This document shows, one piece after another, positions 9,393 to 32,486 of a DNA stretch of 45,959 nt. A program made the translations under genes and the position numbers. How positions within the stretch are numbered: the first letter of the stretch is position 1; the number at the start of each line of letters is the position of its first letter. The stretch is taken from the IMG/VR virus record IMGVR_UViG_3300025121_000006; one strand, written 5' to 3'. This DNA comes from a virus. Below the pieces are notes generated by a model. The model did no database searches, was not told the origin of the DNA, and saw nothing but the letters and a program-made list of their open reading frames with translations.

Positions 9393-12007
9393 AAATGAGA
9401 AATAAGAAATTAGAAATTAAAAGCCTTCGTGGAACTTCGTGTTCTTCGTGGTTAAAATTCTTGTTTCTTGTGTCTTGTGTCTTGTTTCTTGCCGCCCCTG
9501 CGGCGGCTTATCGCCAGACGACAAATACGCTAAACGGGGGGGAACTATCGCCACTGCTCGAGGGCAGGAGCGATATTGAAAAGTATTACAGCGGATGCCG
9601 GACTCTTGAAAATTTCCTTGTTCTCTCGCACGGAGGCGTAACAAAAAGGCCAGGGACGGCCTATATTGCAACCGCCAAGACTGCGGGCGATACAGTCAGA
9701 TTGATACCTTTTGAGTATTCGACCGAACAGGCCTATATCCTCGAATTCGGCGATGAGTATATAAGGTTCTATAAAGATAGCGGCCAGATAACATCCGGCG
9801 GCAGCGCTTATGAGATAGTTTCACCTTACGATAAAAGCGATCTATTTGAATTGCAGTATATTCAGTCCGCCGATGTGATGTATATAGTCCATCCCGATTA
9901 TGCTCCGCGTCAGCTTACAAGGACGGGTCACACGGCCTGGACTATATCGGCGGTCGATTTCCAGCGTGGGCCGTTTCTGGCCGAGAATACGACCGATATC
10001 ACAATAACGCCGTCGGCGACGACCGGCACGATAACACTTACGGCAAGCGATGATATATTCGATGCCAATCACGTCGGGGCGCTGTGGCAGATAAATCATA
10101 CCATAGGGACTGAAAAGGCACTGCCGTACTGGTCGGGTACCGATACCGGAACGGAGGCCGGCCCGACGGTTCAACTGGGCCGCAGGTGGGAGCTTACCAC
10201 GCACGGGACATGGAACGGGGTATTGAAGCTGGAAAAAAGTTACGATGGTACAAACTGGACAGATGAATATATAGTATCGAGCGTAAACGACGATAACCGG
10301 CAGGCGCCGGGCATAGAGGAAAGAGACGACGCGGTGTACCGGCTGAATATGGAAAGCCACATATCCGGAACGATATACGTGCGGTTTTACGCCTTTAGCC
10401 ACGAGATACAGGGCGTTGTCCGCATAACGGCCGTCACAAGCGCAACAAGTGCAACGGCGACGGTAGTTAATACCCTTGGTGGTACGACGGCGACGGCCAG
10501 ATGGGCGGAAGGGGCGTTTAGCGAAGATGAAGGGTATCCGCGGGCTGTAGCGTTCTACGAAGAGCGGCTCGCCTTTGCGGGCACGAGGAACAGCCCGCAG
10601 ACTATATGGATGAGCCAGACGAACGATTGGCCGAACTTTTACGCAGGCGCCGAGGCCGATCAGGCGATAAGCTACACAATCGCAAGCGATAAGGTGAACG
10701 CGATATACTGGATGGCGGCGGCAAATTCGCTGCTATTGGGGACTTCGGGCGGGGAGTGGAAACTAAACGGCGGCAATAACGGAGAGGCTCTTAGCCCGTC
10801 GGTTCCGCCGGTATGCCGAAGGCAGTCGAGCTACGGAAGCGAATATCTCCAGCCGCAGCTTACCGAGAACGTCGTTTTGTACGTGCAGAGGCAGAGCAAG
10901 AAGATTCGGGAAATGGCCTATTCGTTCGAGCAGGATGGCTACGTCAGTCCTGATATGACCATACTTGCCGACCATATAACAGGCACAGGGATAACGCAGA
11001 CGGCGTTTTCCAAGACGCCCGACCCGATACTGTGGTGCGTTACGGGCGATGGATACCTGGCCGAGCTTACCTATAACAGGGAACAGAATGTCACCGCGTG
11101 GAGCCGGATAGTTACAGATGGCGACATTGAATCGGCTGCGGTAATACCCGGCGATGGCGAAGATGAGGTGTGGGTTTCGGTAAAGAGGACTATCGACGGC
11201 ACAGATTACCGGTATATTGAGCAGTTCAGTGCGAGAGATTTTGGCTCGGATCAGGCGGACGCGATATTAGTCGATTCAAGCCTGTCTTTCGACGGCGGCG
11301 ACAGTGTTACGATAACCGGCGTTACAAACGCAAATCCGGCGGTTGTCACGGCGGCAGGTCACGGCTTCGCCGATGGCGAGCAGATTCGGTTTTCAAGCGT
11401 CGGCGGAATGACGCAGTTAAATAATAAGGTCTTTACCGTCGATTCGCCGGGGTTAAATAGTTTCACCCTGTACGATAAGACAAACGCAGTCGCGATAAAT
11501 TCCAGTGCGTTTTCTACATATACAAGCGGTGGATCGTGCGAGCAGGTAGAGAATACATTTACGACGCTTAGCCATTTAGAGGGCCAAACGGTTCAGGTCG
11601 CAGCAGACGGGGGCTATTACGGCACAGAGACGGTTAGTTCCGGTACCGTGACACTTGCCGATTTTTACAATAAGGTTCATATCGGACTTGGCTACACGGC
11701 CAAATTACTGCCGCAGCGGCTTGAAGTGCCGGGCGGGAATCTTACGGGCAGGGAAAAGAGGATAACGAAACTTACAATGCGGTTTAATAAGAGCCTTAGC
11801 TGTCGGGCGGGGGTAAGCTGGACGGAATACGACAATATAGTGTTTCGCGATGCCGACGATCTGCTGGAGGCGGCAAGCCCGTTATACAGCGGCGATAAGG
11901 AAATAGACTTTGACGGAGACTGGGACACGCAGGGCGATATCTATATCTTAAACGAGCTGCCCGTGCCGTGTACGATACTATCGATTACGACGGAGTTTGA
12001 TTTATGA
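9389..12007 (+). CDS. tail tubular protein B / nozzle (T7 gp12-like)
   Basis: About 870 aa. 'TNTLNGGELSPLLEGRSD...GGVTKRPG' parallels T7 gp12 'IKNLKGGISQQPDILRYPD...EGLQKRPP'. An ATGA overlap couples it to the upstream gene. Confidence 0.6.
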   Translation: MKMRNKKLEIKSLRGTSCSSWLKFLFLVSCVLFLAAPAAAYRQTTNTLNGGELSPLLEGRSDIEKYYSGCRTLENFLVLSHGGVTKRPGTAYIATAKTAGDTVRLIPFEYSTEQAYILEFGDEYIRFYKDSGQITSGGSAYEIVSPYDKSDLFELQYIQSADVMYIVHPDYAPRQLTRTGHTAWTISAVDFQRGPFLAENTTDITITPSATTGTITLTASDDIFDANHVGALWQINHTIGTEKALPYWSGTDTGTEAGPTVQLGRRWELTTHGTWNGVLKLEKSYDGTNWTDEYIVSSVNDDNRQAPGIEERDDAVYRLNMESHISGTIYVRFYAFSHEIQGVVRITAVTSATSATATVVNTLGGTTATARWAEGAFSEDEGYPRAVAFYEERLAFAGTRNSPQTIWMSQTNDWPNFYAGAEADQAISYTIASDKVNAIYWMAAANSLLLGTSGGEWKLNGGNNGEALSPSVPPVCRRQSSYGSEYLQPQLTENVVLYVQRQSKKIREMAYSFEQDGYVSPDMTILADHITGTGITQTAFSKTPDPILWCVTGDGYLAELTYNREQNVTAWSRIVTDGDIESAAVIPGDGEDEVWVSVKRTIDGTDYRYIEQFSARDFGSDQADAILVDSSLSFDGGDSVTITGVTNANPAVVTAAGHGFADGEQIRFSSVGGMTQLNNKVFTVDSPGLNSFTLYDKTNAVAINSSAFSTYTSGGSCEQVENTFTTLSHLEGQTVQVAADGGYYGTETVSSGTVTLADFYNKVHIGLGYTAKLLPQRLEVPGGNLTGREKRITKLTMRFNKSLSCRAGVSWTEYDNIVFRDADDLLEAASPLYSGDKEIDFDGDWDTQGDIYILNELPVPCTILSITTEFDL
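9397..9491 (-). repeat. composite: heptamers + A units (reverse) + degenerate reverse A (CTTGTKTCTTG run)
   Basis: CCTTCGTGGAACTTCGTGTTCTTCGTGGTTAA is about 30 nt identical to 45016-45047. It is followed by TTCTTGTTTCTTGTGTCTTGTGTCTTGTTTCTTG. Confidence 0.9.
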
Positions 12008-14252: not shown

Positions 14253-14789
14253 ATGTTAAAGTTTAGAGAATTTACAGCCAAGGATGCAGAGCTGATCGCG
14301 GCAAACGCGGTCGATAGCGAGCTGCGCGGTAAAAGCGGCGAATGGGTCAAATACTGGTCTTTAGTTTGTGAAAATAAAGGGTTCGGATATACGGCGTTTT
14401 TAACCACGAAAAACACGGAAGAAAATAAAACAGCCGGGTTAAACGCTGATTCCGCAGATTACGCTGATGGAAAATCAGAGGCGGGAGATATTATCGGGGC
14501 GGCGGGGGTGACTTTTTCGGCCAATAGCTGCGGGACGGTGTGGGCGATATTTACGCAGCAGGTCCGCCGATACAGCAAAGAGACTCTGCGGAGTATGAGG
14601 ACTGTTCTTTATGATTTTATTGTGCCGGAATGCGGACTAAAAAAACTGCGGGCATTGTCGAGAGTTAATTTCACGGCGTCGCAGAGATTGCTGGAGGCGA
14701 TGGGGTTTGTTAAAAAGGGAAAAAGAGGCGATTATTATCTATATATAAAACAGTTTAACCACGAAGGACACGAAGATGCACGAAGATAA
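14253..14789 (+). CDS. GNAT-like acetyltransferase carrying an in-frame junction-element insertion
   Basis: The C-terminal 'KKLRALSRVNFTASQRLLEAMGFVKKG' is GNAT-like. Residues 'LTTKNTEENKTAGLNADSADYADG' are encoded by an A + AACAGCC + C composite element. Confidence 0.45.
   Translation: MLKFREFTAKDAELIAANAVDSELRGKSGEWVKYWSLVCENKGFGYTAFLTTKNTEENKTAGLNADSADYADGKSEAGDIIGAAGVTFSANSCGTVWAIFTQQVRRYSKETLRSMRTVLYDFIVPECGLKKLRALSRVNFTASQRLLEAMGFVKKGKRGDYYLYIKQFNHEGHEDARR
14400..14470 (+). repeat. composite A + AACAGCC + C embedded in frame in the GNAT-like CDS
   Basis: TTAACCACGAAAAACACGGAAGAAAATAAAACAGCCGGGTTAAACGCTGATTCCGCAGATTACGCTGATGG. Confidence 0.9.
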
Positions 14790-14790
14790 G
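14749..14790 (+). repeat. junction element: A units spanning a stop/start overlap
   Basis: AACAGTTTAACCACGAAGGACACGAAGATGCACGAAGATAAG. Confidence 0.9.
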
Positions 14791-15360
14791 TGGTTGCGTG
14801 ATTTTGTAAGGCAGGCGGGCAGGTACGTTCCCGATGATGTCGAATTGATAGAGCGTGGCGGAAGAATTTTCTTCGCGCATGCAAGGTTTCGGTTCGACCT
14901 TCTAACATTGGGAGTAATGGCGGCGGGCACGACGATGAACGCGATGGCGGCAAGGCAGCAGGGTAAGGCGAGTGCTGCGATAAATAAATATAACGCGGCG
15001 GTCGATGAGAAGGCGGCCGGCCAGATAGAAAAGGCGGGACTTGCCGAGCAGGCCGAGCGGAAGGACAGGACAAGGCAACTATTAGCGGCCAATAGGGTCG
15101 CTTACGGCAAGAGCGGCGTTGGTATGGCGGGTAGTCCCTTATTAAATGACCTTGACGTTTTGGAAAAAGGAGTGCTCGATAGCGAGATGACCGGCTACAA
15201 CGCAAGGACTTCGGCTGACCAGAAGAGAAGCGAGGCGGTAGCCTCGAGGCTTGCGGCAAATTCGGCCCGAAGGGCGGGCAGGCTGGGGATAGGGCAGGCG
15301 CTGTTCGGCGGTGCGACGGACGCTTTGATACTGAATAGCAGGAAAAAAGAATATGCTTAA
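14776..15360 (+). CDS. putative internal virion (ejection) protein
   Basis: 194 aa, A/G/R-rich. The ATG follows GAAGGACACGAAG directly, and the stop TAA lies inside the next TTAACCACG element. The function is inferred from position. Confidence 0.4.
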   Translation: MHEDKWLRDFVRQAGRYVPDDVELIERGGRIFFAHARFRFDLLTLGVMAAGTTMNAMAARQQGKASAAINKYNAAVDEKAAGQIEKAGLAEQAERKDRTRQLLAANRVAYGKSGVGMAGSPLLNDLDVLEKGVLDSEMTGYNARTSADQKRSEAVASRLAANSARRAGRLGIGQALFGGATDALILNSRKKEYA

Positions 15361-17176: not shown

Positions 17177-20100
17177 ATGGCAGATTTTGCAACAACATTC
17201 GCGGCGGTCGATAAGCAGAAAAAGGACAGGTTCGCACAGACTTTTAGAGAGGTCGAACAGGCCAAAGAAAACGAGGCATGGAATACGCTTGCCGCGGAGG
17301 GGGCTGTTTACGAGCCGTTCTTTGAGAAAATTGAGCAGGCCGAACTTGCCGAGCGGGAACTGTTTAGCAAAGAGCAACTTGATTACAGTAAGAGACTGGG
17401 CGGGAAAGTGCCCAATATGGCGTTATACGACGAGGCACTTAACTACGCCGACGATAAGACCATCAGTAAAATGGACGACAGCCAAAGGTGGGAACTGGTC
17501 AAAGAGAACAGGGCAAAAAGAGCCGAAATGGGTTATAAGTTTCTGCCGGTAGATAAGAAAAAACTTATGACGGGAGGCTATTCGGCGGACGGAAAGCCGG
17601 TTTTTAACGGGCCGACTATCAGGGCGGCCAACGCGACGTATTTAGCGGGCGCTACGGGGATGGAGGTCGAAAGTGCGGCGGTTCTCTACGATTCGCTGGT
17701 GACGGGGCTTTGGGGCGATAAAGAACCGAACGACATCAAGCCGTTGGGTAAATTGATTCGAAAATGGTATTCGGATAAAAGGCTTATAGAAAGCGGGATA
17801 TATCCCGAGATTTACAGGGCTGCGCAGAGGTACGCGGCGGGCGATAATACGGTTGACTGGGATATTGTAAGGGGCAATCTTTCGAGGGAAAAAGAGGAAC
17901 TGTTCAATTCCTATATCAGCCAGATGGGCAGGCCAAAACAACGGGGCGTTTTCGGCAAGACAGCGGAGGTCTTAAAACGAAGTATCGGCAGATCGGCGCA
18001 GAATATAACGGATTTTAGAACCTTGGTTGTGCCGGAAAAAACATTAAGCCAGCCAATTGAGCAGATGAAGGCCTTTAGCGAATTTAAGGCAAGGGAGGGC
18101 AGAGAGCCGACGGCGGAAGAATCTTTGCTGATTATGCAGGAAGCGACAAGCCGAATGAAAGAGCGGGTAATAGGCCGCAAAAAGAGTAAAGAGGCACTTG
18201 AAGCGGGCGATCCGGTTAAAGGGGAAAGCATACCCGGCAAACTGTTCTACGGCACACTTTCAATTGCGCCAGATGTACTGGCAAGCGCAGGACTGACGAT
18301 AGCGGCAAAAAGCCCCGTAGCGAGCTTTCAATACTGGTATATGCTGACGGCGACGGATATCTATACCGATATGGCCGATCTGGGATTCGAGGACGAGGCG
18401 GCCACGAATACAGCGAAAATCCTTGCCCTGCCGGTCGCGGCGGTAGAGTTCCTGCAGGCGGGCCAGTGGACGAAAGGATTGACCGGTGCGGCCAGGAAAA
18501 AAGCGGTCGCAAAGGCGCAGCAGGGTTTGACAAATTATCTGGCCGGTAAGCTCAAAGGTGGGCTGGTCAATTTCGGCAAAGAATACGGCCAAGAGATTCA
18601 GCAAAGCGGCCTGAAGGTCGCGGGCATGGCGTTTGCCTCATCGCTTACAGAGGATGCGCCGGATGTGAACTGGTGGGACGATGTGATAAGCCCGGAGATT
18701 GGCGGACTGGGCGAGGCGCTTTGGAGTTTTCCGGGGCTTACCGTTGGGTTTGGGGCAGCCGAGATTGGCAGCGAAGCGAAGATGGTACGCAGGATTATGA
18801 AAGATCATCCCGGCATCGATGCGGCCACGGCTCGCGCGGCGGTCTATAACGCCAAAAGTGGGGCGTTCGATGACGCGATAGAGGCAGGACTGGAAGCGAA
18901 ACAATTGATTCCGTTTACGGTCGAGGAACTAAATAGCCGGGTCGAAGAGACAAAGGCAAAATTAACTGACCTATCAGCGATGGAGGGCGGGCAAAATAGC
19001 GAACTTCTTGAATATACCCAGCGCAGGCTTGCGATACTGAAGGATGGCGGGGACAGGGGCGAACTTGCCGCATCGGCCAGCCGTTACGGGATTGACGAGG
19101 ATTTCGACGAGGAAACAGCCGAACAGCCATTCACCACAGAAGGCACAGAAGAAATAAAAGGCACAGAAGGGAAAATGGGGGCGGAATACAGGGATGCGGT
19201 GGTTGGGGCGGTGCGGGGGATTTTAGAGGCGAATGGGATTGCGGCACAAATCAGGGCGGTCGAAAATATAGAACTGCCCGAAGGTGCGGAAGGTCAGCAG
19301 GCGGCGGCGCAGCAGGCAAGGGGGGCGTTCTATTTCGATGGGGACGGGGCCAAGGTAATACAGCTTGCGTTTGCGTATAACGAAAATCGCAGGCCGGCGG
19401 ATATCACAACGGCGGGTCATGAATCGTATCACGCGCTGGCGGAGCTATTGACCGATGAGGAACGGGCGGCGGTCGCTGCCCAGTTTGGCGAAAATGAGGA
19501 TATGCAGGCGGAAGGGTTCGGGGTATGGTTAGGGGATAGGGTACAGGGTAGAGGGGATAAAGCAGGGGGAATAGTTTCACGGGCGTTTGAGAGGATCGCG
19601 GAGCTTTTAAAAAAGATTTATGCGGCGTTAAAAAAAGAGGGGCTTACTTATAAAAGTGTGTTTGAGGGTGTCGCCGCAGGCGAGTTAAAAGGCAGAACAT
19701 CGAACATCGAACGCTCAACATCGAACGTTGAATCAGGAAGGCAAACAGCCGGTAGTATTTTATATCACGGTACAGATAATGCAGAATCTATTTTGAAAAA
19801 CGGATTTACTTTCAAAAGTAGAAATTTCAAAGGGGAACGGGGCGAATTTGGAAACTCCATATCACTTTCGCCGGATAAAAATTTCGCCAAAATATACGGC
19901 AAAGATGTCATAGAAATAAAACTTAAGCCCAATATCAAATTGTTTGAAAATGAGGGCTATTCCGTTGATCATTTCAGTAGAACGAAATTTCATGATAGAG
20001 TGGAAGAGTTAGAGTCTAATGGGATTTCCGGTGAAAAAGCCACAGAAACGGCTATCGACGAATTAAAAGAGCAGGATTATGGCGGTATAAAAACCACTTA

Positions 20101-23100
20101 CGATTCAGGAAAAATAGAAATAACCATTTTTAACCCCAAAGATATCCAAATTCAGAAAGTCGAACAGCCGAATTTAGCCACAGAGGACGCAGAGAAGGCG
20201 GGGTTGAAATTCCAGACGGAAGATGATACAATGGGCGGCATGGCAGGCAAAAAGGCTGCCCGCGACATAGCCTCTCAAAAAACAGCCGAAGCGGGAAAGG
20301 GGCCGGTGAAACCAGCCGAATTGCAAAGACTTGAAGGGTTGTGGGATGAAGTTCAACCGCAGGTCATTCAATGGGAAAAAGAAAACCCAAAGCCAAAGCG
20401 CCCACAAGATATTGGGTTGCGGGCAAATAGCGAAATTCCACTGGATACACCAGGCCGGAAAGTTATTATTGAAGATATTCAAAATCGATTAAAACAGTCA
20501 AAAAAAGATTGGGAAGTAAAAAGAGATGAGGTGGTCAATAACTTTTTGGGAGGGGATTTAGACAAACTTCAACAATTACAAGCTGAATTTCGTTTTTCAA
20601 AAGAAGATTTTCGGAAAAGTCAATTTCCTCAAACCTATTCAAAAGAAATCAAATCTTTTAGAGATTTAGGATTAAACAGTTTAGCTGATAGTGTGGCGGA
20701 ATGGGGACGCGATGCTCTTGGTCTTTTTAAGCCCGATTGGTATGCACACGCCAAATATGTTGCCATAAAAATAATAAAAGAAAACGGCGGGATACAGACA
20801 TACAAAAGTAACAAAGGTGAATCAGGGTCAATTTACTTTAAGATGCCCAGTGGTCAAGAAATAAGGATTTCAGACCATGAACTACCAGAACACAGAGCAG
20901 GCCTTAATGAAATCCCAAATTGGGACGAAATTATATTAGATAAAATCATACCAGTGCAAGATATAATCGAAAGAACAAACGACATTCTGGGCATCGAATC
21001 CTCTTTTAACCACCCCGCCCCCGATGCAGGGGGGCAAGCCCCCGCGGCGAATGAGCGGGGCGAAGTTAAATTCCAGATCGATACCCAGCCGGTCAGCAAG
21101 CTGGAAGCTTCTTTCCGTAAGGATGCGGAGGAATATGTGGCCAATGTCTATATCGAAGGGGCGGACAGGGTGAACGCCTTTATCGAAGAGACAAGAGGCA
21201 GGGCAGGCCAGATTTCAAACGAGATGGATAAAAACGACGCGATGGCCGAGGTTGACGCAGCCAAGGCGGCGGCGGATGAGGCGTTTGCGGCGGCGGGGCT
21301 GGTGGGGGCTTTGCAGGGTATGAAGGGGGCAAAAAAGCCGGTTCTTGTCAATGACGCCAAGGGGGTCTATAAAGGCCAGCAGCAGCTTGCGATAGAGGCA
21401 GGCATCAGAGCCAAGGCGGCGGTCGATAAGGCCTTGTATCAGCAGCAGGCAAGGCCGAAGCGGGCAAAATACCTCGATGGATTTGCCAACAGGTTTTTCG
21501 GCCATTTGAATGACGCCAAGAGACTTGCCGGCAGGGGCGCGGCAAAGAGCGGAAAGCAGGCGAAAAAGACCTTTGAATATCTGGCCGTGCCGATAGCCAA
21601 CAGGCTCGAGGCGATAAGCCCGACCGTATTTCAGCAGGTTTTATATACCGAGTATAAAATCAAGACAAGGACGGCGGCGATGGCCAGGGAGGCGGTTCCG
21701 TTGCTTGAGAAGCTAAACCGGTTTCAAAAGGATAATACCGCCAAATTCGACGATTTCGCCATTGCATGGCGGGATGGCGACTTTACCGAGGCCGACAGGA
21801 TTGCAGAGCGGTACGGGTTCGCCGATGAATTTACGGCGGTTCGGGCGGTACTCAACGAGATATTCGCAATGGCTAACCGGGTGGGGATGGAGATAAGATA
21901 CGCTCAAGGGTACGGGCCAAGGCACATAACCGATATAGAAGGGTTTATGGAAGCCATCGGGGGCACGGAGGCACATTCGCAGATAGCCGAGGCTATACGC
22001 AACGCCGAAAAGAAAAAAGGACGCCAGCTTGAAGCTGACGAGAGGCTGCGGTTGATTAATACACTGATTCGCGGCTATACGTCAAGCGGGATCGCGTTAT
22101 CGAGGGCGGGACACGCTAAAGAGAGGGGTATCGAGAACACAAGCGAACTGGGCGAATTCTACGCAAGTCCGCAGGTAGCCCTGATGCACTATATAACAGA
22201 GATGAACGAAAAGGTTAGCTGGCGGGAGTTTTTCGGCAAGGAGACAAAGGATCTTGTAAATCTGCGTGGTGAAAAATCCAGGCTCCTGACCAGATTAAAC
22301 GCGTTATCGGGCAAGACGGCGGGCAAGGTCTTTTTGATGGGTAAGGGCTTTAGCGAGCTAAATGAAATAGACTACGCAGAGCATATCAAGAGTGAGTGGA
22401 AAAAACTCGACGAGGTCAGCGCAAAGATAACAGTTGCCGACCAGAAAAGCCTATCGGAATCGGTGGCAAGCTATGTCGACGAAAAGTATATCAGGCCAAG
22501 CGAGGCGGCGGGCAGTCCCGGTAAACGGGGCGAGGATTTGGCCAGTTTATTGCAGGCTCTTATCGAGCCGAAATCGGTGAGCGACCGCAATCTTAAATTC
22601 CTGCGAGACCTGGGCTATATTACCACACTTGCAAATCCGTTTTCGGCGATGACGCAGTTGAAAGATATCGGCGTCTCGGCGTATCGTGATATCTGGGGTT
22701 TTTTGCCACAGACAATTAAGGCCGCCGTCAATAAGGGTGAGCTAAACTTAGAGGATATCGGGGCGGCTCTGTTCGGCGAGGAGCTTACGGCCGAATCCGT
22801 GGGCAGGGCGGTCGCCGCGTCAATGAAATATTCGGGATTCGCTTATATAGATAGATTAGGCAAAACGACCTATATAAACACCGTAATAAACAAATACCGC
22901 AGGGAATCGGCTGGTTTGAGCGATGCCGATATCTCGCAGATGGCGGCTGGCACGAAGAAAAAGAGCGAGACATTTGAGCGGGTCGAACGGTTCTTCGGCG
23001 ATAAGACAAGCGATGTGGTCAAAGAAATCAGGGACGGCGGGATAACGGATAATATAAAATTCCTTGCGTTCGCCGAACTTGCGGACGTGCAGCCGATAGC

Positions 23101-23575
23101 GATGAGCAGTATGCCGGCCGGCTACGCCAGGGCGGGCAACCTGCGGCTGATGTATATGATGAAAAGCTTTACGATCCGCCAGATAAACTGGATTTACCGC
23201 GAATCGATAAAAGAGATGGGCAGTAAAAAGACGTTCGCACGAGGGGCGAAAAGGCTTATCCAGCTCGCGATTACGCTGGAGGCGTTCAATATCGGCATCG
23301 AAGTGCTGCGTCAGCTTGCCAAGGGCAAAGAACCCGACGAGATAGACATCGCAGATATCGCCATTGATGAGGCGATGGGTTATATGATGGCAAGCAGGTA
23401 CAGTGTCCAGAATATAAGGAGGGAAGGATTCGCAGGGTATATGAAACAGGTCGCCCCGCCGACAAAGCCATTCGACTGGATAGTGCAGGGCAAACCAGAT
23501 AAAGCGGTAAGGAATATCCCGATACTGGGCGAGCCGTATTACTGGTGGTTCGGGGCGGGCAGTGAAAAGAAGTAA
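17177..23575 (+). CDS. giant mosaic virion/ejection protein (polyvalent-like) with HExxH and PARP-like ART motifs
   Basis: An uninterrupted 2132-aa ORF in the position of T7 gp16. It contains HESYH (19418-19432), 'LYHGT...GEFGNSISLS...KIEITIF' (19741-20160), and vestigial in-frame junction elements. Confidence 0.6.
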   Translation: MADFATTFAAVDKQKKDRFAQTFREVEQAKENEAWNTLAAEGAVYEPFFEKIEQAELAERELFSKEQLDYSKRLGGKVPNMALYDEALNYADDKTISKMDDSQRWELVKENRAKRAEMGYKFLPVDKKKLMTGGYSADGKPVFNGPTIRAANATYLAGATGMEVESAAVLYDSLVTGLWGDKEPNDIKPLGKLIRKWYSDKRLIESGIYPEIYRAAQRYAAGDNTVDWDIVRGNLSREKEELFNSYISQMGRPKQRGVFGKTAEVLKRSIGRSAQNITDFRTLVVPEKTLSQPIEQMKAFSEFKAREGREPTAEESLLIMQEATSRMKERVIGRKKSKEALEAGDPVKGESIPGKLFYGTLSIAPDVLASAGLTIAAKSPVASFQYWYMLTATDIYTDMADLGFEDEAATNTAKILALPVAAVEFLQAGQWTKGLTGAARKKAVAKAQQGLTNYLAGKLKGGLVNFGKEYGQEIQQSGLKVAGMAFASSLTEDAPDVNWWDDVISPEIGGLGEALWSFPGLTVGFGAAEIGSEAKMVRRIMKDHPGIDAATARAAVYNAKSGAFDDAIEAGLEAKQLIPFTVEELNSRVEETKAKLTDLSAMEGGQNSELLEYTQRRLAILKDGGDRGELAASASRYGIDEDFDEETAEQPFTTEGTEEIKGTEGKMGAEYRDAVVGAVRGILEANGIAAQIRAVENIELPEGAEGQQAAAQQARGAFYFDGDGAKVIQLAFAYNENRRPADITTAGHESYHALAELLTDEERAAVAAQFGENEDMQAEGFGVWLGDRVQGRGDKAGGIVSRAFERIAELLKKIYAALKKEGLTYKSVFEGVAAGELKGRTSNIERSTSNVESGRQTAGSILYHGTDNAESILKNGFTFKSRNFKGERGEFGNSISLSPDKNFAKIYGKDVIEIKLKPNIKLFENEGYSVDHFSRTKFHDRVEELESNGISGEKATETAIDELKEQDYGGIKTTYDSGKIEITIFNPKDIQIQKVEQPNLATEDAEKAGLKFQTEDDTMGGMAGKKAARDIASQKTAEAGKGPVKPAELQRLEGLWDEVQPQVIQWEKENPKPKRPQDIGLRANSEIPLDTPGRKVIIEDIQNRLKQSKKDWEVKRDEVVNNFLGGDLDKLQQLQAEFRFSKEDFRKSQFPQTYSKEIKSFRDLGLNSLADSVAEWGRDALGLFKPDWYAHAKYVAIKIIKENGGIQTYKSNKGESGSIYFKMPSGQEIRISDHELPEHRAGLNEIPNWDEIILDKIIPVQDIIERTNDILGIESSFNHPAPDAGGQAPAANERGEVKFQIDTQPVSKLEASFRKDAEEYVANVYIEGADRVNAFIEETRGRAGQISNEMDKNDAMAEVDAAKAAADEAFAAAGLVGALQGMKGAKKPVLVNDAKGVYKGQQQLAIEAGIRAKAAVDKALYQQQARPKRAKYLDGFANRFFGHLNDAKRLAGRGAAKSGKQAKKTFEYLAVPIANRLEAISPTVFQQVLYTEYKIKTRTAAMAREAVPLLEKLNRFQKDNTAKFDDFAIAWRDGDFTEADRIAERYGFADEFTAVRAVLNEIFAMANRVGMEIRYAQGYGPRHITDIEGFMEAIGGTEAHSQIAEAIRNAEKKKGRQLEADERLRLINTLIRGYTSSGIALSRAGHAKERGIENTSELGEFYASPQVALMHYITEMNEKVSWREFFGKETKDLVNLRGEKSRLLTRLNALSGKTAGKVFLMGKGFSELNEIDYAEHIKSEWKKLDEVSAKITVADQKSLSESVASYVDEKYIRPSEAAGSPGKRGEDLASLLQALIEPKSVSDRNLKFLRDLGYITTLANPFSAMTQLKDIGVSAYRDIWGFLPQTIKAAVNKGELNLEDIGAALFGEELTAESVGRAVAASMKYSGFAYIDRLGKTTYINTVINKYRRESAGLSDADISQMAAGTKKKSETFERVERFFGDKTSDVVKEIRDGGITDNIKFLAFAELADVQPIAMSSMPAGYARAGNLRLMYMMKSFTIRQINWIYRESIKEMGSKKTFARGAKRLIQLAITLEAFNIGIEVLRQLAKGKEPDEIDIADIAIDEAMGYMMASRYSVQNIRREGFAGYMKQVAPPTKPFDWIVQGKPDKAVRNIPILGEPYYWWFGAGSEKK
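19113..19174 (+). repeat. vestigial junction element in frame inside the giant ORF
   Basis: AAACAGCCGAACAGCCATTCACCACAGAAGGCACAGAAGAAATAAAAGGCACAGAAGGGAAA followed by an in-frame ATG. TTAAC has changed to TTCAC, so there is no stop. Confidence 0.8.
19684..19751 (+). repeat. tandem ACATCGAAC units + AACAGCC box in frame inside the giant ORF
   Basis: GTTAAAAGGCAGAACATCGAACATCGAACGCTCAACATCGAACGTTGAATCAGGAAGGCAAACAGCCGG. Confidence 0.8.
20162..20203 (+). repeat. vestigial junction element in frame inside the giant ORF
   Basis: GAACAGCCGAATTTAGCCACAGAGGACGCAGAGAAGGCGGGG. Confidence 0.75.
21036..21060 (+). promoter_or_regulatory. conserved leader box, copy 3, embedded in frame in the giant ORF
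   Basis: AAGCCCCCGCGGCGAATGAGCGGGG, with no ATG downstream. Confidence 0.5.
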
Positions 23576-23578
23576 AAA

Positions 23579-23645
23579 TGGAAAATTTGAAATTTGAAAA
23601 GGAGTTCAATATGCTTAACCACGAAAAGCACGAAGGGCACAAAAG
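23579..23645 (+). repeat. heptamers + SD + ATG + A units (translated)
   Basis: GGAAAATTTGAAATTTGAAAAGGAG...ATGCTTAACCACGAAAAGCACGAAGGGCACAAAAG. Confidence 0.9.
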
Positions 23646-25632
23646 AGGCTATAGACTATGGACTAAAGGCTATGGGTTGCTTGTTGTTTGTTTCTTGTTT
23701 CTTGCCCCTTGTCTGGCGACGGTGACGGAGACTTCGACCAAAGTGCAGTATTCATGCAACGGGTCGAGTACGGCATTTGCGTTCAGTTTCCCCATTGTAG
23801 AAACTTCGGATATCGTCGTGATTCTGCGGACGGTAGCGGACGGGACGGAGCTTGTTTTGACCGAGGGGGTCAATTACAATGTGTCGGCGACAAATAACGA
23901 TTATTCGCAGGGCGGGACCGTAACGGCGACTACGGCTTATTCGAGCCTATACCAGCTTACCATCATGAGAGACACGCCCGATACGCAGGAGGCCGATCTC
24001 GATGATTCAGGCACGCTTAGACTGGAGACGCTCGAAGATGCGATGGACAGGGCGACAATGCAGATTCAGCAGCTTACCGAATCGTATAGCAGGGCTATAC
24101 ATTATCCGCGAAGCGATTCGACTTCGCTTACGGGCGAGCTTGACGACTCGATAAGCAGGAAGGGCGGGTATTTAGGTTTTAGCAGCTCTACCGGCGAGGC
24201 GCTTGTGGTGGCGGGACTTACTCCTTCGGATGTGACGGTGTCGCCGTTTGCCGAAACGGCTCTTGACGATGCGACAGGGGCGGCCATGCTGACTACGATG
24301 GGGGCAATGGCGGTATTTAATGTCAAGACCTACGGAGCAATCGGCGACGGCGATACAAACGATACGGCGGCGATAACCTCGGCGATAACCGCCGCGGCGG
24401 CGGCGGACGGCGGAATCGTGTGGTTCCCGACGGGGGTGTACCTGTGCAATGTGACGCTCTCTAACGACAATATCCGCCTATTGGGGGCGGGCAGCGAATC
24501 GCCGGTCGATTGGGACGGCGGGGATGAAAACTGCTCGATGCTGAAGGCGTACACGACCGACCCCGTTATAACGATATATCCAAGTTCCGGCGGCGGGCAG
24601 GTCAGCGGGATACAGATAAGTAATCTGACAATTGACGGCAACGATACAAGCAAGGGAATTTATTATCAGGCCGACAACCCGTATATACTCTATTTTTGCA
24701 GATTTGAAAATCTTAATATAAACAATACCACTTACGGCATCGATTTATATACCTACGGCGGGGTAAGCGCGGTAAAGAATACTATGAACCAATGCGTGTT
24801 CGACCATATTACCGTGTGGGATTTTACCGTTAACGGAATTATGACATCTTCCGTCGGCAGTTATAACAACTGGAGCAGAATTTTAGTTTATGACAGCGGC
24901 AATACATCGACCAGTTACGGTATTTATCATAGAGGGTTGAATGATAACTGGAACGGCGTTACAACAAACACCAAAGTAAGAATTGACGGCGCTAATACAG
25001 AAATGGCAAATCTGACCGTAGAGGGAATATATGGTACAACCGGAGTGGCTACAACTGCTACAACGCCGGCAATAACCGTCGCAGGTTATGCTCAAACTTT
25101 TATCAATGTCGATCTGAAGAGTACCGACGACGGAGGCGGCACGGCGAACTATGGAATAGCGGCGTATAACGGGCCAAACTACTTTATAAATGTCAGATAC
25201 TGGGGCAATGTCACAGAATTAACTTACCCGTTTACAATCAACCAGAATTCAAAGGGATATGTCTATTTTTACGCATTCCCGTCAACGGGTACGAAATTAG
25301 ACTCTACCGCCCATTATAACGCTACCCTTGCAACTTATTCCAACGCCTTTAAGAACTGGACTATCGCGGGCGATTTGACTTACGTCTGCGACGGGCTTGG
25401 TCAAATCCCTATGCCGCAATCGGCACTGCCAGCCCATTCGGCGAATCCGACAAACGCGGTCGATGGATTGAGAGGCCGCATAGTATTTAATGATACAGGC
25501 GACGACCACTTTTACGGGACGGTGCAAAAGAACGGGTTAAGAGTCTGGAAGCGATTAGACACAGACCCGGCGGATTTTATAAGCTATGAGAATGCAAGCG
25601 TATTTTACGAAGAAGAAATTGTCACGTACTGA
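23611..25632 (+). CDS. tailspike with pectate-lyase-like beta-helix domain
   Basis: 'FNVKTYGAIGDGDTNDTAAITSAI...GGIVWFPTGVYL' is the pectate_lyase_3-type tailspike signature. A strong SD (AAGGAG) lies 7 nt before the ATG at 23611. Confidence 0.7.
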   Translation: MLNHEKHEGHKRGYRLWTKGYGLLVVCFLFLAPCLATVTETSTKVQYSCNGSSTAFAFSFPIVETSDIVVILRTVADGTELVLTEGVNYNVSATNNDYSQGGTVTATTAYSSLYQLTIMRDTPDTQEADLDDSGTLRLETLEDAMDRATMQIQQLTESYSRAIHYPRSDSTSLTGELDDSISRKGGYLGFSSSTGEALVVAGLTPSDVTVSPFAETALDDATGAAMLTTMGAMAVFNVKTYGAIGDGDTNDTAAITSAITAAAAADGGIVWFPTGVYLCNVTLSNDNIRLLGAGSESPVDWDGGDENCSMLKAYTTDPVITIYPSSGGGQVSGIQISNLTIDGNDTSKGIYYQADNPYILYFCRFENLNINNTTYGIDLYTYGGVSAVKNTMNQCVFDHITVWDFTVNGIMTSSVGSYNNWSRILVYDSGNTSTSYGIYHRGLNDNWNGVTTNTKVRIDGANTEMANLTVEGIYGTTGVATTATTPAITVAGYAQTFINVDLKSTDDGGGTANYGIAAYNGPNYFINVRYWGNVTELTYPFTINQNSKGYVYFYAFPSTGTKLDSTAHYNATLATYSNAFKNWTIAGDLTYVCDGLGQIPMPQSALPAHSANPTNAVDGLRGRIVFNDTGDDHFYGTVQKNGLRVWKRLDTDPADFISYENASVFYEEEIVTY

Positions 25633-25633
25633 C

Positions 25634-25726
25634 AAAAAAAATTAAAAATAAAATATTAAAAATCAAAAATGAAAGGAGTCAAAAACAATGTTTAACCACG
25701 AAGGACACGAAGGGACACGAAAAGGG
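25634..25726 (+). repeat. A-rich heptamers + SD + ATG + A units x3 (translated)
   Basis: AAAAATTAAAAATAAAATATTAAAAATCAAAAATGAAAGGAG...ATGTTTAACCACGAAGGACACGAAGGGACACGAAAAGGG. Confidence 0.9.
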
Positions 25727-26155
25727 ATTTGCTGCTTGTTAATTGTTGCCTGCTGCTTAATGGGGTTTGCAAGCGCGGCGGATTTGAAGGAAAAGAGTAT
25801 CTCGCTGCTCTCGGCGACGACGGTTGCCTTTAACGCCAACGCCGATACTACGCTTTATACCGTGCCGACGGGTAAGCGATGCGTTCTGCATTCGGCGGTA
25901 GTTGTGGCGGGCGCGGACGCGGGGGCGACGACGACGCTTTCTATCGGGCAAAATACGGCGGAAACCGACTTTGTTGCCGCCCATACGCTCTCGAACCTCG
26001 ACGCGGCTTACGATGCGGTTATATTGCAGCCGGTACCGGCTACCACACCGTTGAAGATAAAAAGCTACGCAGCCGGCACGGTGATACAGGCGCAGGTCGC
26101 CAGCCAGTCGGGCGGAGCGACAAATACGGTGTACCTGTTCGGATTTTTGTATTAA
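25688..26155 (+). CDS. small secreted-type virion-module protein
   Basis: 155 aa, SD AAAGGAG. The N-terminus MFNHEGHEGTRKGICCLLIVACCLMGFASA is encoded by an A-type element followed by a hydrophobic core. Confidence 0.5.
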   Translation: MFNHEGHEGTRKGICCLLIVACCLMGFASAADLKEKSISLLSATTVAFNANADTTLYTVPTGKRCVLHSAVVVAGADAGATTTLSIGQNTAETDFVAAHTLSNLDAAYDAVILQPVPATTPLKIKSYAAGTVIQAQVASQSGGATNTVYLFGFLY

Positions 26156-26217
26156 ACGGCCGGTTTAACCACGAAGGACACGAAGAAAAATTTAATCACG
26201 GATTTCACGGATGAACA
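26154..26217 (+). repeat. junction element: A units + B units
   Basis: AAACGGCCGGTTTAACCACGAAGGACACGAAG ... TTTAATCACGGATTTCACGGATGAACAC. Confidence 0.9.
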
Positions 26218-26245
26218 CTAATTAAGGCAAAAGGCAGGAAGCATT

Positions 26246-26506
26246 ATGGCAAAGGAAAATAGCGTCGGAAAAGTTATCAGTATTATCGCAATGATTATTA
26301 CGATAACGATTAGTTTTGCAAGTCTTGTTTTCGCGGTGGCGACGCAAAATGAACGGCTTAATTATACATGCGCCGAACAGGATAAAATGAAGGCCAAGAT
26401 AGAAAGCCATGATCTTGCCATCACTGAAATCCAGACCGATATAAAGTATATCAGGCTTGGAATTGATGAGATAAAAAGGGAGGTCAAAAAGCAAAATGGC
26501 AACTAA
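26246..26506 (+). CDS. putative holin-like membrane protein
   Basis: 86 aa with one TM segment (VISIIAMIITITISFASLVFAVA) followed by a coiled-coil tail. The call rests on position and topology only. Confidence 0.35.
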   Translation: MAKENSVGKVISIIAMIITITISFASLVFAVATQNERLNYTCAEQDKMKAKIESHDLAITEIQTDIKYIRLGIDEIKREVKKQNGN

Positions 26507-26651
26507 CAGGGAAGACAGGGAGGATTTGCAGGATACGGTCAGAACGTGCCTGAAACTATTGGCGGACCTGAATGATATTTCTAAAAAGGCGGCAGTGGAA
26601 TGGCAGAAAGTAAAAAAAATATGCGATAAAACTATGAAAAAATTAGGTTAA
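26496..26651 (+). CDS. small hypothetical protein (51 aa)
   Basis: The ATG overlaps the end of the previous gene, and a terminator hairpin follows. It is below the ORF-track size cutoff. Confidence 0.35.
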   Translation: MATNREDREDLQDTVRTCLKLLADLNDISKKAAVEWQKVKKICDKTMKKLG

Positions 26652-26685
26652 AAAGTTTTCTCTCATCACTCCTCCTCCTTAAAGG

Positions 26686-26723
26686 CGGGCGGATGGCTGT
26701 GTAGGCTGTCCGCCCGTTATTTT
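26686..26723 (+). terminator. terminator between convergent gene blocks
   Basis: CGGGCGGA ... TCCGCCCG (8-bp stem, 15-nt loop) followed by TTATTTT. Confidence 0.6.
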
Positions 26724-26765
26724 AGCACTATCGTGCTAATTGATTATTGAAAATATATACAAGTG

Positions 26766-27314
26766 TTAGTAATTTTGCATTCTGTTCATCATGAAAAACC
26801 TGTAATCCCATTCGGCTTGGTTCTGTTTTTTGTCCAAGTCTTGTATTTTTCTTTCGGCTTGCTCGAACCAAACCGTACGTTCGTCTTGTAATAGAACAAT
26901 TTCATCATACAACTCACCTTTTCGTGATAGCAAAAGAGTAATCTCGGAAAAAATATTGGGATCACACACTTTTCGCAAATTTCGCAATGTTATCTCATTC
27001 GAAGCCAAATCATCGGCTTTGTAAGCCTTATCTGCCAATTGATAGGCAACGAGTTGGTCGTCAGTCAGTTTTTTGACCAGTTGCATTTCGTCAGATAGTA
27101 ATTTATCCATTTTTTCTTTGGCTAAATTTTCTCGCCGACGGATATCGTCTATTTTTTCCGTTGCATCGCGAAGGTCGGTATTTACATATTCAGAAGGCAA
27201 ATCACCAATCTTAACAGCAGGTGTATAATTTTCGTGGCCTTGGTACGTTTCGCACGCACACAAAAGAGTAATAGAAAAAATAACATACATAAGCAATTGT
27301 TTCATAGTTCGCAT
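26766..27314 (-). CDS. coiled-coil lipoprotein (moron; possible superinfection-exclusion factor)
   Basis: The N-terminus is MRTMKQLLMYVIFSITLLCAC, with SD AAAGGA 8 nt upstream. The gene is AT-rich, on the minus strand, and next to the integrase. Confidence 0.5.
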   Translation of the reverse strand: MRTMKQLLMYVIFSITLLCACETYQGHENYTPAVKIGDLPSEYVNTDLRDATEKIDDIRRRENLAKEKMDKLLSDEMQLVKKLTDDQLVAYQLADKAYKADDLASNEITLRNLRKVCDPNIFSEITLLLSRKGELYDEIVLLQDERTVWFEQAERKIQDLDKKQNQAEWDYRFFMMNRMQNY

Positions 27315-27347
27315 ATTTGTTTCCTTTCTAAACAAGAAAATTTATAT

Positions 27348-28163
27348 TCAATTCTCCAATATATTGGTTGTGCCTTTGAGAGTTTCTTCCGACCAGTGGA
27401 CATAGACGTTTTCGGTCACTTTGGTATCGGCATGACCCAGAAGGCGGCTGATAGTATACATATCGACGCCCCGGTGGTAAAGCTCATTTGCAAAAAAATG
27501 GCGGCAGGAATGAGGGCTAAAGGTTGGGATTTTAGCGGAGGCGGCGAGTTTTTTGCAGGTTCGCCACATCCAAAGCCTCTTTTTGCGGCGGACGAATGAA
27601 AAATCAGGGTATTTTCGGACTATTGAGATGGCGGTGGAATTCAAGGGAATAGAACGGTTGCGGCGGCCCTTGCCGACGATGCGAAGGAAGCCATTTGCAA
27701 GGTTGTCGGGGCCCAGGCCGGCAAGTTCGGAAACCCGAAGGCCGGTATGGCAAAGGAATTGAAAGCAGGCCAGTTCGTCGTCGGCAGGGTTTTTGCGGCA
27801 GACTTTTTTATATTCGGCCATGGATAGTATCCGCTGATCCGGCGGCAAGGCGGGAAGCGTATTCAACAGACGGCCAAGGTCGGCGGTATTGATGCGGCAG
27901 CTTAGCCACTTGTAAAAGCTTTTGATGGCGTTGATGTAGAGATTGCAGCTGCTTGCCTTGCGGCCTTTGGCTCGCTTACGCAAGATGAAGGTTTCTATAG
28001 TTTCAACCTTGACGACGGTTAGGTCATTGCCGACATATTTGGCAAGGTCGAGAAGCACTTTGCGATAGGTTTTTAGGGTATCGTCAGAGAAGGTTCTGTT
28101 AAAAAATAAAAAATTTTCCACAGTTGACGCAAAATTTTTTTCGTCTGTAAACATCGTTCCCAT
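27348..28163 (-). CDS. int: tyrosine integrase
   Basis: 'HSCRHFFANELYHRGVDMYTISRLLGHADTKVTENVYVH' carries the R..HxxR..Y catalytic signature of phage integrases. Confidence 0.85.
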   Translation of the reverse strand: MGTMFTDEKNFASTVENFLFFNRTFSDDTLKTYRKVLLDLAKYVGNDLTVVKVETIETFILRKRAKGRKASSCNLYINAIKSFYKWLSCRINTADLGRLLNTLPALPPDQRILSMAEYKKVCRKNPADDELACFQFLCHTGLRVSELAGLGPDNLANGFLRIVGKGRRNRSIPLNSTAISIVRKYPDFSFVRRKKRLWMWRTCKKLAASAKIPTFSPHSCRHFFANELYHRGVDMYTISRLLGHADTKVTENVYVHWSEETLKGTTNILEN

Positions 28164-28281
28164 AAGACATTATACAAAACGACGCGCCGGATAGTCAAAT
28201 ATTTTCTAAAAAAAACTTGCAAATGAAACATAACATATATAAACTTTAAGCATGAATGAAAATTATGCTTGAAGGTGTGTT

Positions 28282-29001
28282 ATGTTTTCAAAATTTTGGC
28301 ACGCGGTTGTATCCTTAAATCCTGTTTGTTCCCATCAAAAAAGTTTCCTCGCTCAATCCGTTTCGCGACTTGCCGAAAAGGATTGTAACAAAACAGAGCC
28401 GATAAGTCAACAACAAAATAGAAATAGGCGGCTGCTCAATTCGTCACTTTCAAGCAGTTTCAGAAAAAGCGGTCGCCTTTTTTATAATCTCCCTCCGCTG
28501 GCGGGGTCGGTAATCGTCACGATCGTATTGCTGGCCCTGCCGTTTTTTGGTTCTTCGCCACTTGGTCGGGGACAGGGTACTTCTTTTTCCTCCCACCTAA
28601 AGAAAACTCCCGTCCCCGTTTTTGTCATTATTATGCTTTTGCTCGCCAGTACCGCCTTTGCCGCCGATTTTGACCGATTGCTTGACGCGATCGAGCAGGT
28701 CGAAAGCGGCGGCAGGGTGTGCACAGGTGACGGCGGAAACGCGGTCGGGTCGTATCAAATCTGGAAAATCTATGTCGATGATGTCAACAGGATAATCGGC
28801 AAAAATAGGTATAGTTACGCTGACAGGTACAGCCGCGTAAGAAGCCGCCAGATGGTCAGGATATATCTAAACCATTATGGCAAGGGCAAGAGCTTTGAGG
28901 CAATGGCACGGATTCATAACGGCGGGCCCAAGGGCGATACGAAGCAATCGACGGTTAAATACTGGGAAAAGGTGAAAGAGGCGATGGGAGGTGCAAAATG
29001 A
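28282..29001 (+). CDS. SLT-type lytic transglycosylase (endolysin) with long N-terminal extension
   Basis: 'IEQVESGG...AVGSYQI...ARIHNGGPKG' matches the E-S / G-x-x-Q-I / (A)YN-G-G SLT motifs. The catalytic part is ~28650-29001, and ATG 28633 (MLLLASTAFA) is an alternative start. Confidence 0.6.
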   Translation: MFSKFWHAVVSLNPVCSHQKSFLAQSVSRLAEKDCNKTEPISQQQNRNRRLLNSSLSSSFRKSGRLFYNLPPLAGSVIVTIVLLALPFFGSSPLGRGQGTSFSSHLKKTPVPVFVIIMLLLASTAFAADFDRLLDAIEQVESGGRVCTGDGGNAVGSYQIWKIYVDDVNRIIGKNRYSYADRYSRVRSRQMVRIYLNHYGKGKSFEAMARIHNGGPKGDTKQSTVKYWEKVKEAMGGAK

Positions 29002-29372: not shown

Positions 29373-29546
29373 ATGACACTGGCGGAATTGAAGGCTTATT
29401 ATATCGACCTGCGGGAAGAACTTGAGATGTGTAAGGATAAATACGATTACATGCGCGGGGCGACAATAGCGGGGATAAAGCGGACGGTGCAGCAGAAAAT
29501 AGAACGGATAGAAGAGAAGGTTTTTGCGGGAAGGAATTCAAAATGA
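29373..29546 (+). CDS. small hypothetical protein (57 aa)
   Basis: A strong SD (TAAGGAGG) lies 7 nt upstream, and an ATGA overlap joins it to the next gene. It is below the ORF-track cutoff. Confidence 0.55.
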   Translation: MTLAELKAYYIDLREELEMCKDKYDYMRGATIAGIKRTVQQKIERIEEKVFAGRNSK

Positions 29547-30137: not shown

Positions 30138-30141
30138 AAAA

Positions 30142-31541: not shown

Positions 31542-31590
31542 CAAAAAGCTAAAAACGAAAAATTTATTTTTTAGAAAGGAATTTAGAAAG

Positions 31591-32409: not shown

Positions 32410-32414
32410 AGGCC

Positions 32415-32473: not shown

Positions 32474-32486
32474 AAATGGAGTTTTT

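Follow-up and report, generated by a model that had tools for sequence, protein, structure and literature searches.

A PARP-like ADP-ribosyltransferase-fold domain with an H-S-E site in a giant candidate virion protein of a podovirus-like phage

The polyvalent proteins of phages and conjugative elements carry ADP-ribosyltransferase (ART) domains, which make up the family ART-PolyVal (PF18760, also "N4-ART"; PMC5512222, PMC9503650). These ARTs have an H-Y-D active site, with the Asp in strand 5, and belong to the Tox-ART-HYD2 clade (Iyer et al. 2017, PMC5512222). In polyvalent proteins a pairing of metallopeptidase and ART has been described, for which autoprocessing was proposed (PMC5512222). 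That ARTs in such proteins are delivered by the virion was predicted computationally in 2017 and again in 2022 (PMC5512222, PMC9503650). Here we describe an ART-fold domain in IMG/VR virus record IMGVR_UViG_3300025121_000006, a stretch of 45,959 nucleotides that we analysed whole (the window). The domain spans residues 860-996 of an uninterrupted open reading frame (ORF) of 2132 residues, the giant ORF, which lies where T7-like phages encode gp16. We consider it rather probable that the giant protein is packaged and delivers a domain that uses nicotinamide adenine dinucleotide (NAD+) into the host, where it would modify a host macromolecule.

A sequence-only reading of the window had quoted a peptide with PARP-like motifs, encoded at 19741-20160. 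The peptide is in frame within the giant ORF on the plus strand, where it makes up about residues 856-995. No relatives of the domain were returned by a word-index homologue search; they were recovered solely by an exhaustive phmmer search of 1.84 billion representative proteins, which found 25 at E ≤ 1e-3 (best 5.9e-9, 32-47% identity). Those relatives that we checked all proved to be metagenomic proteins without a name. Many of the 25 are embedded in proteins of 1200-2700 residues, some of which also bear the polyvalent-protein domains LPD14 or LPD38. We aligned the domain segment of the giant ORF with those of 22 relatives, 23 segments in all. The motifs of this family alignment are YHG(T/S), GxG(I/V)Y(L/F)T, A..(Y/F)G, GYDGI, and E-x-(V/I)-I-F-(D/N)-P-K. 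As a profile against the PDB, the alignment matched only PARP catalytic domains (PARP15, PARP10, tankyrases, and PARP14; E from 1.8e-4) and then Tpt1. In the PARP alignments YHGT is set against FHGT and GeGvYlT against GKGTYFA.

Structure prediction gave the same answer. An AlphaFold model built on the family alignment reached a predicted local distance difference test score (pLDDT) of 83.4 and a predicted TM-score of 0.75; the model from the single sequence was poor (pLDDT 44.5) and unusable. Compared with the PDB by Foldseek, the model matched the ART domains of tankyrase 1 and 2, PARP4, and PARP1 (E from 2.4e-4, probability 1.00, TM-score about 0.5), and each of the top 31 matches was a tankyrase or PARP4 ART domain at probability 1.00. 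The same search also lists the ART-fold NAD+ phosphorylase toxin MbcT (E 2.7e-3) and entry 6kyf, which is titled only "anti-CRISPR protein" and which we take to be the ART AcrIF11. Against BFVD, the matches included proteins named "PolyVal ADP-ribosyltransferase", "PARP catalytic domain-containing protein", and "ART-PolyVal-like domain-containing protein", as well as MuF fusions and a virion RNA polymerase protein. From the profile matches and the predicted model, we regard as secure the assignment of residues 860-996 to the ART fold, and we place them in its H-Y-E (PARP/diphtheria-toxin) division. The sequence-only reading had suggested that profile search, structure prediction, and fold comparison be used to check its proposal: all three lead to the ART fold, and among solved structures the PARP catalytic domains come closest. 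Since ART-fold matches came from profile and structure alike, the first refutation that it had named for itself, the lack of any such match, fails.

The resemblance to PARP (PF00644: tankyrase, PARP15, PARP10, PARP14, PARP4, and PARP1) takes in the motifs (F/Y)HG(T/S) and GxG(I/T)YF, the Y-X10-Y spacing and, judged by its pattern, a Glu that opens a C-terminal E-x-(I/V)-(I/V)-(Y/F) strand. The two differ in other respects: the score is far below the Pfam cut-off, identity is 10-14%, the triad Tyr is Ser in the giant-ORF domain, the helical regulatory domain and the donor loop are missing, and the helical insert between the strands is of another kind. There is no sign of chain elongation.

With the isolated domain as query, the best Pfam match was ART-PolyVal (E 1.8e-4, 22.8-23.3 bits, profile positions 8-130 of 140), which scored 17.4 bits on the whole ORF; PARP (PF00644) was matched over the first half of the domain only (E 0.046, 12.3-13.7 bits). 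Across the family alignment, 17 of the 23 members match ART-PolyVal at E ≤ 0.01 (best 3.5e-9) and nine match PARP at that threshold (best 4.2e-8). We also compared the family profile with two canonical ART-PolyVal copies carried by P0027, a homologous giant protein described below. The comparisons gave E 6.7e-5 and 3.5e-4 and aligned the final strand as well as GYDGI and the motifs around the His and the Tyr. Where the family has the Glu of E-x-x-I-F, Thr or Ser stands in the canonical copies. Because the family matches both ART-PolyVal and PARP and differs from the canonical copies at this Glu, we assign the domain, from its sequence, to an outlying group, PARP-like and Glu-bearing, that is related to ART-PolyVal. 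Its family is a small metagenomic one, without a name, between the two Pfam families. Membership in Tpt1/KptA was considered and rejected; the Tpt1 match covers the first motif only, at E 0.067.

By these sequence comparisons the closest named family is ART-PolyVal, a name that was absent from the sequence-only reading. The likeness extends to the setting, a large multidomain phage protein with a neighbouring HExxH peptidase-like module, and to the motifs YHGT, GxGxY(L/F)T...A..YG, and G(Y/F)DG(I/V) together with the final strand. Unlike the published H-Y-D configuration, the giant-ORF copy is H-S-E, with Ser for the Tyr and a Glu in E-x-x-I-F, and its score is below the cut-off.

We then read the active-site positions from the DNA and from the family alignment. 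The His at column 864 is present in 22 of the 23 segments, and the following Gly (column 865) in all of them, including the giant ORF. The second Tyr position, column 907, holds Tyr in 15 segments and Phe in the other eight; in the giant ORF it is Tyr907, 11 residues past residue 896, which gives the Y-X10-Y spacing. Column 981 is Glu in 13 segments and Gln in three. The His and the candidate catalytic Glu that had been picked from the sequence are therefore both at family-conserved positions. In the model, Glu981 opens a predicted strand, the penultimate one (model residues 135-139), with the pattern E-I-T-I-F-N, which resembles the PARP strand E-Y-(I/V)-(I/V)-Y. From this pattern and the strand order, Glu981 may be equivalent to E988 of PARP1. 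Asp976, in "TTYDS" five residues upstream, occupies a position that is unconserved in the family.

The triad Tyr is where the giant ORF departs from its relatives. Column 896 reads Tyr in 16 segments, Thr in three, Ser in two, Phe in one, and Asn in one, and the giant ORF has Ser, as the sequence-only reading had noticed and as both the DNA and the family alignment confirm. Its strand-2 motif is GNSISLS against the family consensus GxG(I/V)Y(L/F)T, so that Ser894 also replaces the second Gly of GxG. The resulting configuration is H-S-E plus the second Tyr. The Tyr is missing from six of the 22 relatives as well (three Thr, one Ser, one Phe, and one Asn). In five of these (P0001, P0006, and P0010 with Thr, P0018 with Ser, and P0020 with Asn) the His and the Glu are retained, as is an aromatic residue at the second Tyr position. 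This argues that loss of the triad Tyr is tolerated in the family, and falls short of proving activity for the giant-ORF copy. Judged from these substitutions, the Ser at position 896 probably alters affinity or the choice of substrate without abolishing function.

The domain may instead have kept the ART fold and lost some or all of its catalysis, so that it would serve as a spacer or as an NAD+ or ADP-ribose binding module, or would be a recent acquisition in decay. We think this unlikely, if it is the alternative that survives best. Replacement of both the triad Tyr and the second Gly of GxG speaks for it, and so does an ART-PolyVal score lower than those of the best family members. The cassette that encodes the domain is moreover compositionally unadapted (GC content at third codon positions, GC3, 0.35); it is therefore probably recent and could be under relaxed selection. 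Yet His864, Gly865, Ala904, Tyr907, Gly908, Glu981, and Phe985 all match the family consensus, the five other Tyr-less members (T, T, T, S, and N) retain the His, the second aromatic residue, and the Glu, and the reading frame is intact over 2132 codons.

A second alternative, quite unlikely in our view, is an active NAD+ enzyme that is not a protein ART: a modifier of nucleic acids of the DarT or Tpt1 type, an NADase, or an MbcT-like phosphorylase. The family profile does touch the RNA 2'-phosphotransferase Tpt1 (E 0.067), MbcT is among the Foldseek matches (E 2.7e-3), and loss of the strand-2 Tyr could mean a different acceptor or a different reaction. By sequence as by fold, however, PARP catalytic domains give clearly better matches. 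The Tpt1 match is confined to the first motif, and the invariant and nearly invariant columns of the family alignment contain no Tpt1-type conserved Arg set.

The preferred reading, delivery of an NAD+-using ART by the virion, draws on the position of the giant ORF. The order of a gp14-like internal virion protein gene, an ORF of 553 residues, the giant ORF, and a tailspike gene puts the giant ORF at the T7 gp16 position (Table 1), and supports the ejection-protein context that the sequence-only reading had proposed. The window also encodes a GP7-type major capsid protein, a T7-type portal, and a large terminase, and by these sequences the phage is podovirus-type. The ART was probably acquired horizontally. 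By analogy with described systems, it probably reaches the host together with the injected DNA. On the model of T7 gp16 and of the polyvalent proteins (Iyer et al. 2017), the giant protein would be packed into the core of the capsid and, on infection, move into the cell. Inside the cytoplasm, NAD+ would be bound by the ART domain through His864, the backbone of Gly865, and Tyr907, and Glu981 would be used for the transfer of ADP-ribose to a host macromolecule, ahead of any phage gene expression. It could act while still attached, or once released at (V/L)KFQ junctions by the adjacent HExxH peptidase-like module. The modification would serve to divert host machinery or to switch off a defence. 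An anti-defence role appears as plausible as a take-over of transcription, because the anti-CRISPR entry 6kyf is among the structural neighbours.

Three described systems deliver, or are proposed to deliver, enzymes in a comparable way. The proposed likeness to T4 Alt is that of a capsid-carried ART that is delivered with the DNA and modifies host proteins before phage expression (PMC5512222, PMC9503650). Alt, however, belongs to the R-S-E division (Alt/VIP2 clade), not to H-Y-E. It stands alone as a protein inside the head of a myovirus, whereas the ART described here is one domain of a giant protein at the gp16 position. Bxa, a MuF-fused phage ART toxin that has been tested experimentally (PMC11699363), shares the arrangement of an ART on a capsid-internal carrier and the use of polymorphic, exchangeable effectors. 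It differs in being C-terminal to MuF, in modifying arginine, and in being paired with immunity and ARH genes; the carrier formed by the giant ORF is a different one. T7 gp16 and the podovirus ejectosome share the genomic position and the idea of a giant core protein that carries an enzyme, but the enzymes described for gp16 and for gp28 of cyanophage A4 are peptidoglycan hydrolases, and the backbone of the giant ORF has no detected similarity to T7 gp16.

Several observations weigh against delivery of an active ART. The two substitutions in strand 2 (GNSISLS against GxGxYxT), one of them at the triad Tyr, make reduced or lost activity possible. The domain scores below the Pfam gathering cut-offs, at 22.8 against 31.2 bits for ART-PolyVal and 13.7 against 26.7 bits for PARP. 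Because the cassette is without a close homologue (best 35% identity), selection on it is not measurable. Pfam and PHROGs found no part of the giant ORF that matches T7 gp16 or any PHROG, so the case for packaging in the virion and for ejection is made from gene order and analogy. The external matches of the HExxH module are weak and non-significant (DUF5700, E 0.0036-0.012; Zmp1/PPEP-1 and oligopeptidase A, E 0.05-0.13). Finally, the 10 ORFs scanned downstream of the tailspike gene (25688-33814) include no ADP-ribose hydrolase or recognisable immunity gene, the scan having picked out only an integrase and a C5 cytosine methylase, a result that neither supports nor refutes activity.

The absence of homology between the backbone and T7 gp16, or any other annotated ejection protein, also bears on a further alternative, in which the giant protein is not ejected. 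It would then be a structural protein inside the capsid or associated with the tail, and the ART would act late, in the producing cell, or never. We hold this to be very unlikely in view of the gene order, the presence of relatives at the same position in other podovirus-like contigs, and the published model of polyvalent proteins (PMC5512222). Chance resemblance of motifs in a low-complexity, AT-rich insert, to which the poor single-sequence model (pLDDT 44.5) and the empty word-index search might have pointed, has practically no probability left and is refuted by the phmmer relatives (25, best E 5.9e-9), by the profile matches to PARP and then Tpt1, and by the ART matches of probability 1.00 for a model with pLDDT 83.

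The ART domain lies in a part of the giant ORF whose DNA is foreign in composition, with low GC. Residues 843-1000, the AT-rich cassette recognised by the sequence-only reading, have a GC content of 0.367 and a GC3 of 0.348, against GC3 values of 0.58 and 0.64 in the flanks of the ORF. A second cassette, at residues 1071-1295, is equally distinct, so that GC3 is 0.35 and 0.33 in the two cassettes and 0.58-0.64 around them. The closest homologue of the backbone, P0026 (2441 residues), aligns to residues 1-842 and 1296-2127 of the giant ORF only; its middle, 798 residues unrelated to those of the giant ORF, carries MuF_C and a second HExxH. Because P0026 shares the flanks only, the ART and the second cassette lie in an exchangeable central region (843-1295). 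P0027 (2668 residues, from an SU10-like contig) has the HExxH module and the C-terminus in common with the giant ORF, and its two canonical ART-PolyVal copies (E 2.4e-42) occupy the same place in the centre. Both P0026 and P0027 are themselves giant ORFs in podovirus-like structural modules.

P0001, the closest relative of the ART domain, belongs to a different giant ORF, in which the domain has the same relative position, on a podovirus-like contig of 41% GC. Its ART region has 38% GC, near the 37% of the giant-ORF cassette. These values fit acquisition of the ART cassette from a phage of lower GC.

Searching with a backbone alignment of three sequences, we found eight IMG/VR loci and one prophage, in an Elusimicrobiaceae metagenome-assembled genome, that share the C-terminal backbone; with the single C-terminal sequence as query, no IMG/VR relative was found. 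Among 185,579 species genomes it was the sole prophage found to be related to the giant ORF, and the relationship is distant. The ART cassette is absent from all eight loci and from the prophage. Their cargo is mostly without identification, and one of the loci (L003) has a different, weak ART-like region. GenBank phages gave no match to the giant ORF by megablast or by tblastn (50,697 phage records). PHROGs had none for the giant ORF or for either cassette, and NCBIfam gave noise only. The second cassette had no significant match in Pfam, PHROGs, NCBIfam, the PDB (phmmer), a word index of 5.8 billion proteins, or the giant proteins that we had fetched (local phmmer). It contains a stretch that reads "KENGGIQTYK...SIYFKMPSGQEIRISDHELP", and the string "KENGGI.TYK" also occurs in P0027.

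The HExxH module is found about 110 residues upstream of the ART domain. Its H, E, and H are invariant in eight relatives of the backbone, which also have a conserved acidic/Ala-x-x-F-G helix downstream of the motif, and the module is conserved in P0001. Pfam does not recognise it, despite its likeness to the zincin peptidase of polyvalent proteins. The arrangement of HExxH module and ART in the giant ORF matches the metallopeptidase-plus-ART pairing of those proteins.

Cargo-module boundaries in the three homologous giants repeatedly show one short motif, [VIL][KR][FY][QS]. It occurs twice in the giant ORF (Table 1), at residues 1438 and 1630 of P0026, and at residues 939, 1131, 1318, and 1406 of P0027, where it flanks each ART-PolyVal copy; shuffling gives an expectation of 0.4-0.6 occurrences per protein. 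The resident HExxH module could cleave at this motif, or the motif could mark a junction at which modules are exchanged.

Two repeats in the DNA lie near the ART cassette. A tandem duplication of 21 nt in the linker between backbone and cassette sits where the homology with P0026 ends (residue 842), right before the cassette. An imperfect direct repeat of 19 nt brackets the cassette. A repeat of this quality was seen at the flanking positions in none of 200 shuffles and anywhere in the region in 22% of them. Its two copies are read in different frames, with a spacing of 419 nt. A simple insertion of the cassette with target-site duplication was considered and rejected, because 419 nt is not a multiple of three. 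The repeat may be a recombination scar.

A bolder combination of these features can be drawn, which we think quite unlikely. The Tyr-less copies (the giant ORF, P0001, P0006, P0010, and P0018) would form a distinct class of ejectosome-delivered NAD+ enzymes, whose acceptor or reaction differs from that of canonical H-Y-E and H-Y-D ARTs, and the cargo region would be a true cassette-exchange system. Its modules would be delimited by (V/L/I)(K/R)(F/Y)(Q/S), bracketed by short direct repeats, swapped between phages of different GC, and freed after injection by the resident HExxH peptidase.

The principle of an ART in a polyvalent virion protein is already known, and similar viral proteins are labelled PolyVal or PARP ART in UniProt-derived libraries. 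The ART of the giant ORF is a new, divergent example among polyvalent virion effector proteins, and its H-S-E site and clean cassette boundaries are modestly unusual features. Our literature search brought up no experimental study of an ART in a podoviral protein at the gp16 position. If the domain is active, the prediction that virion-delivered ART effectors are common would extend to a temperate podovirus lineage without a cultured relative. The giants also offer a compact test case of one ejection-protein backbone with varied cargo: where the giant ORF has a PARP-like ART, P0026 has MuF_C with a second HExxH, and P0027 has its two canonical ART-PolyVal copies. The change from Tyr to Ser is a natural experiment on how far an H-Y-E site tolerates loss of the strand-2 Tyr.

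Table 1 Features of the giant ORF and its surroundings in the window. Residue n of the giant ORF starts at nucleotide 17177+3(n-1).
Feature	Position (nt)	Strand	Basis or remarks
Tail tubular B-like protein	9368-12007		phrog_376, E 2e-217
ORF with weak GNAT and weak "internal virion protein" matches	14253-14789		PF13302, E 0.0033; phrog_308; upstream of gp14-like gene
gp14-like internal virion protein gene	14776-15360	+	phrog_418 "internal virion protein", E 5.3e-19; PF24072 T7_gp14, E 2.1e-5, below cut-off
553-residue ORF	15477-17138		Gene order; between gp14-like gene and giant ORF
Giant ORF, 2132 residues, uninterrupted	17177-23575	+	Candidate polyvalent virion/ejection protein; ART carrier; T7 gp16 position
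N-terminal backbone, residues 1-842	17177-19702	+	56% identity to P0026 residues 1-830; GC3 0.58
HExxH motif, H748-E749-S-Y-H752	19418-19432	+	Candidate zincin-like metallopeptidase module, about residues 715-830; kept in relatives
21-nt tandem duplication, in frame (RTSNIE / RSTSNVE)	19689-19730	+	Backbone-cassette linker; repeat family D1, 76% identity
19-nt imperfect direct repeat, left copy	19733-19751	+	Brackets ART cassette; repeat family D2, 16/19 identical
ART-fold domain, residues 860-996	19754-20164	+	PARP-like / ART-PolyVal-related; sequence searches, model, fold comparison
His864 (CAC), in ILYHGT, strand 1	19766-19768	+	NAD+-binding His position; read from DNA; aligned to PARP15 FHGT
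Ser896 (TCA), strand 2	19862-19864	+	Triad Tyr position; read from DNA; aligned to Y of PARP15 GKGTYFA
Tyr907 (TAC), in AKIYG	19895-19897	+	Second Tyr; read from DNA; invariant A..(Y/F)G motif of family
Glu981 (GAA), in KIEITIFNP	20117-20119	+	Candidate catalytic Glu, E-x-x-I-F-N/D, start of penultimate strand; read from DNA
19-nt imperfect direct repeat, right copy	20152-20170	+	Repeat family D2
Linker, residues 1001-1070	20177-20386	+	Native composition, GC 0.53; holds LKFQ
LKFQ, residues 1010-1013	20204-20215	+	[VIL][KR][FY][QS] motif
Second AT-rich cassette, residues 1071-1295	20387-21061	+	Orphan cargo module; GC3 0.33 (0.329)
C-terminal backbone, residues 1296-2132	21062-23575	+	Starts VKFQIDT; 64% identity to P0026 residues 1629-2439, 26% to P0027 C-terminus
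VKFQ, residues 1297-1300	21065-21076	+	[VIL][KR][FY][QS] motif
Tailspike gene	23578-25632		T7 gp17-type N-terminal adaptor and pectate-lyase domain; downstream of giant ORF
Tyrosine integrase	27348-28163	-	Neighbour-ORF scan
C5 cytosine DNA methylase	32966-33814	+	Neighbour-ORF scan

Beyond the giant ORF, the neighbouring genes characterise the phage further. Because it encodes an integrase and a C5 cytosine methylase, it is probably temperate and self-methylating, as far as gene content tells. Its portal is at most 27% identical to that of any GenBank phage, the nearest being the pelagiphage HTVC010P group and Salmonella phage SPN1S. Upstream of the gp14-like gene lies an ORF with a weak GNAT match; some polyvalent proteins of phages have a GNAT domain beside their ART domain (Iyer et al. 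2017, PMC5512222). Residues 658-727 of the tail tubular B-like protein match the FCCH domain of ubiquitin-activating enzyme E1 (PF16190, E 5e-12).

Two further Foldseek matches of the ART model lie in proteins of other phages. One, in BFVD, is gp26 of Phormidium phage Pf-WMP3 (1495 residues, E 4.3e-4). The other, a weak match in the PDB (E 9e-3), is chain B of entry 9k3a, gp28 in the pre-ejectosome of cyanophage A4. The paper on that structure describes an alpha+beta domain of gp28 that it leaves unassigned; the only domains that it annotates are peptidoglycan hydrolases, with no ART among them (PMC12002296). From the comparison of models, A4 gp28, a protein of a solved ejectosome, may contain an ART-like domain that has gone unrecognised.

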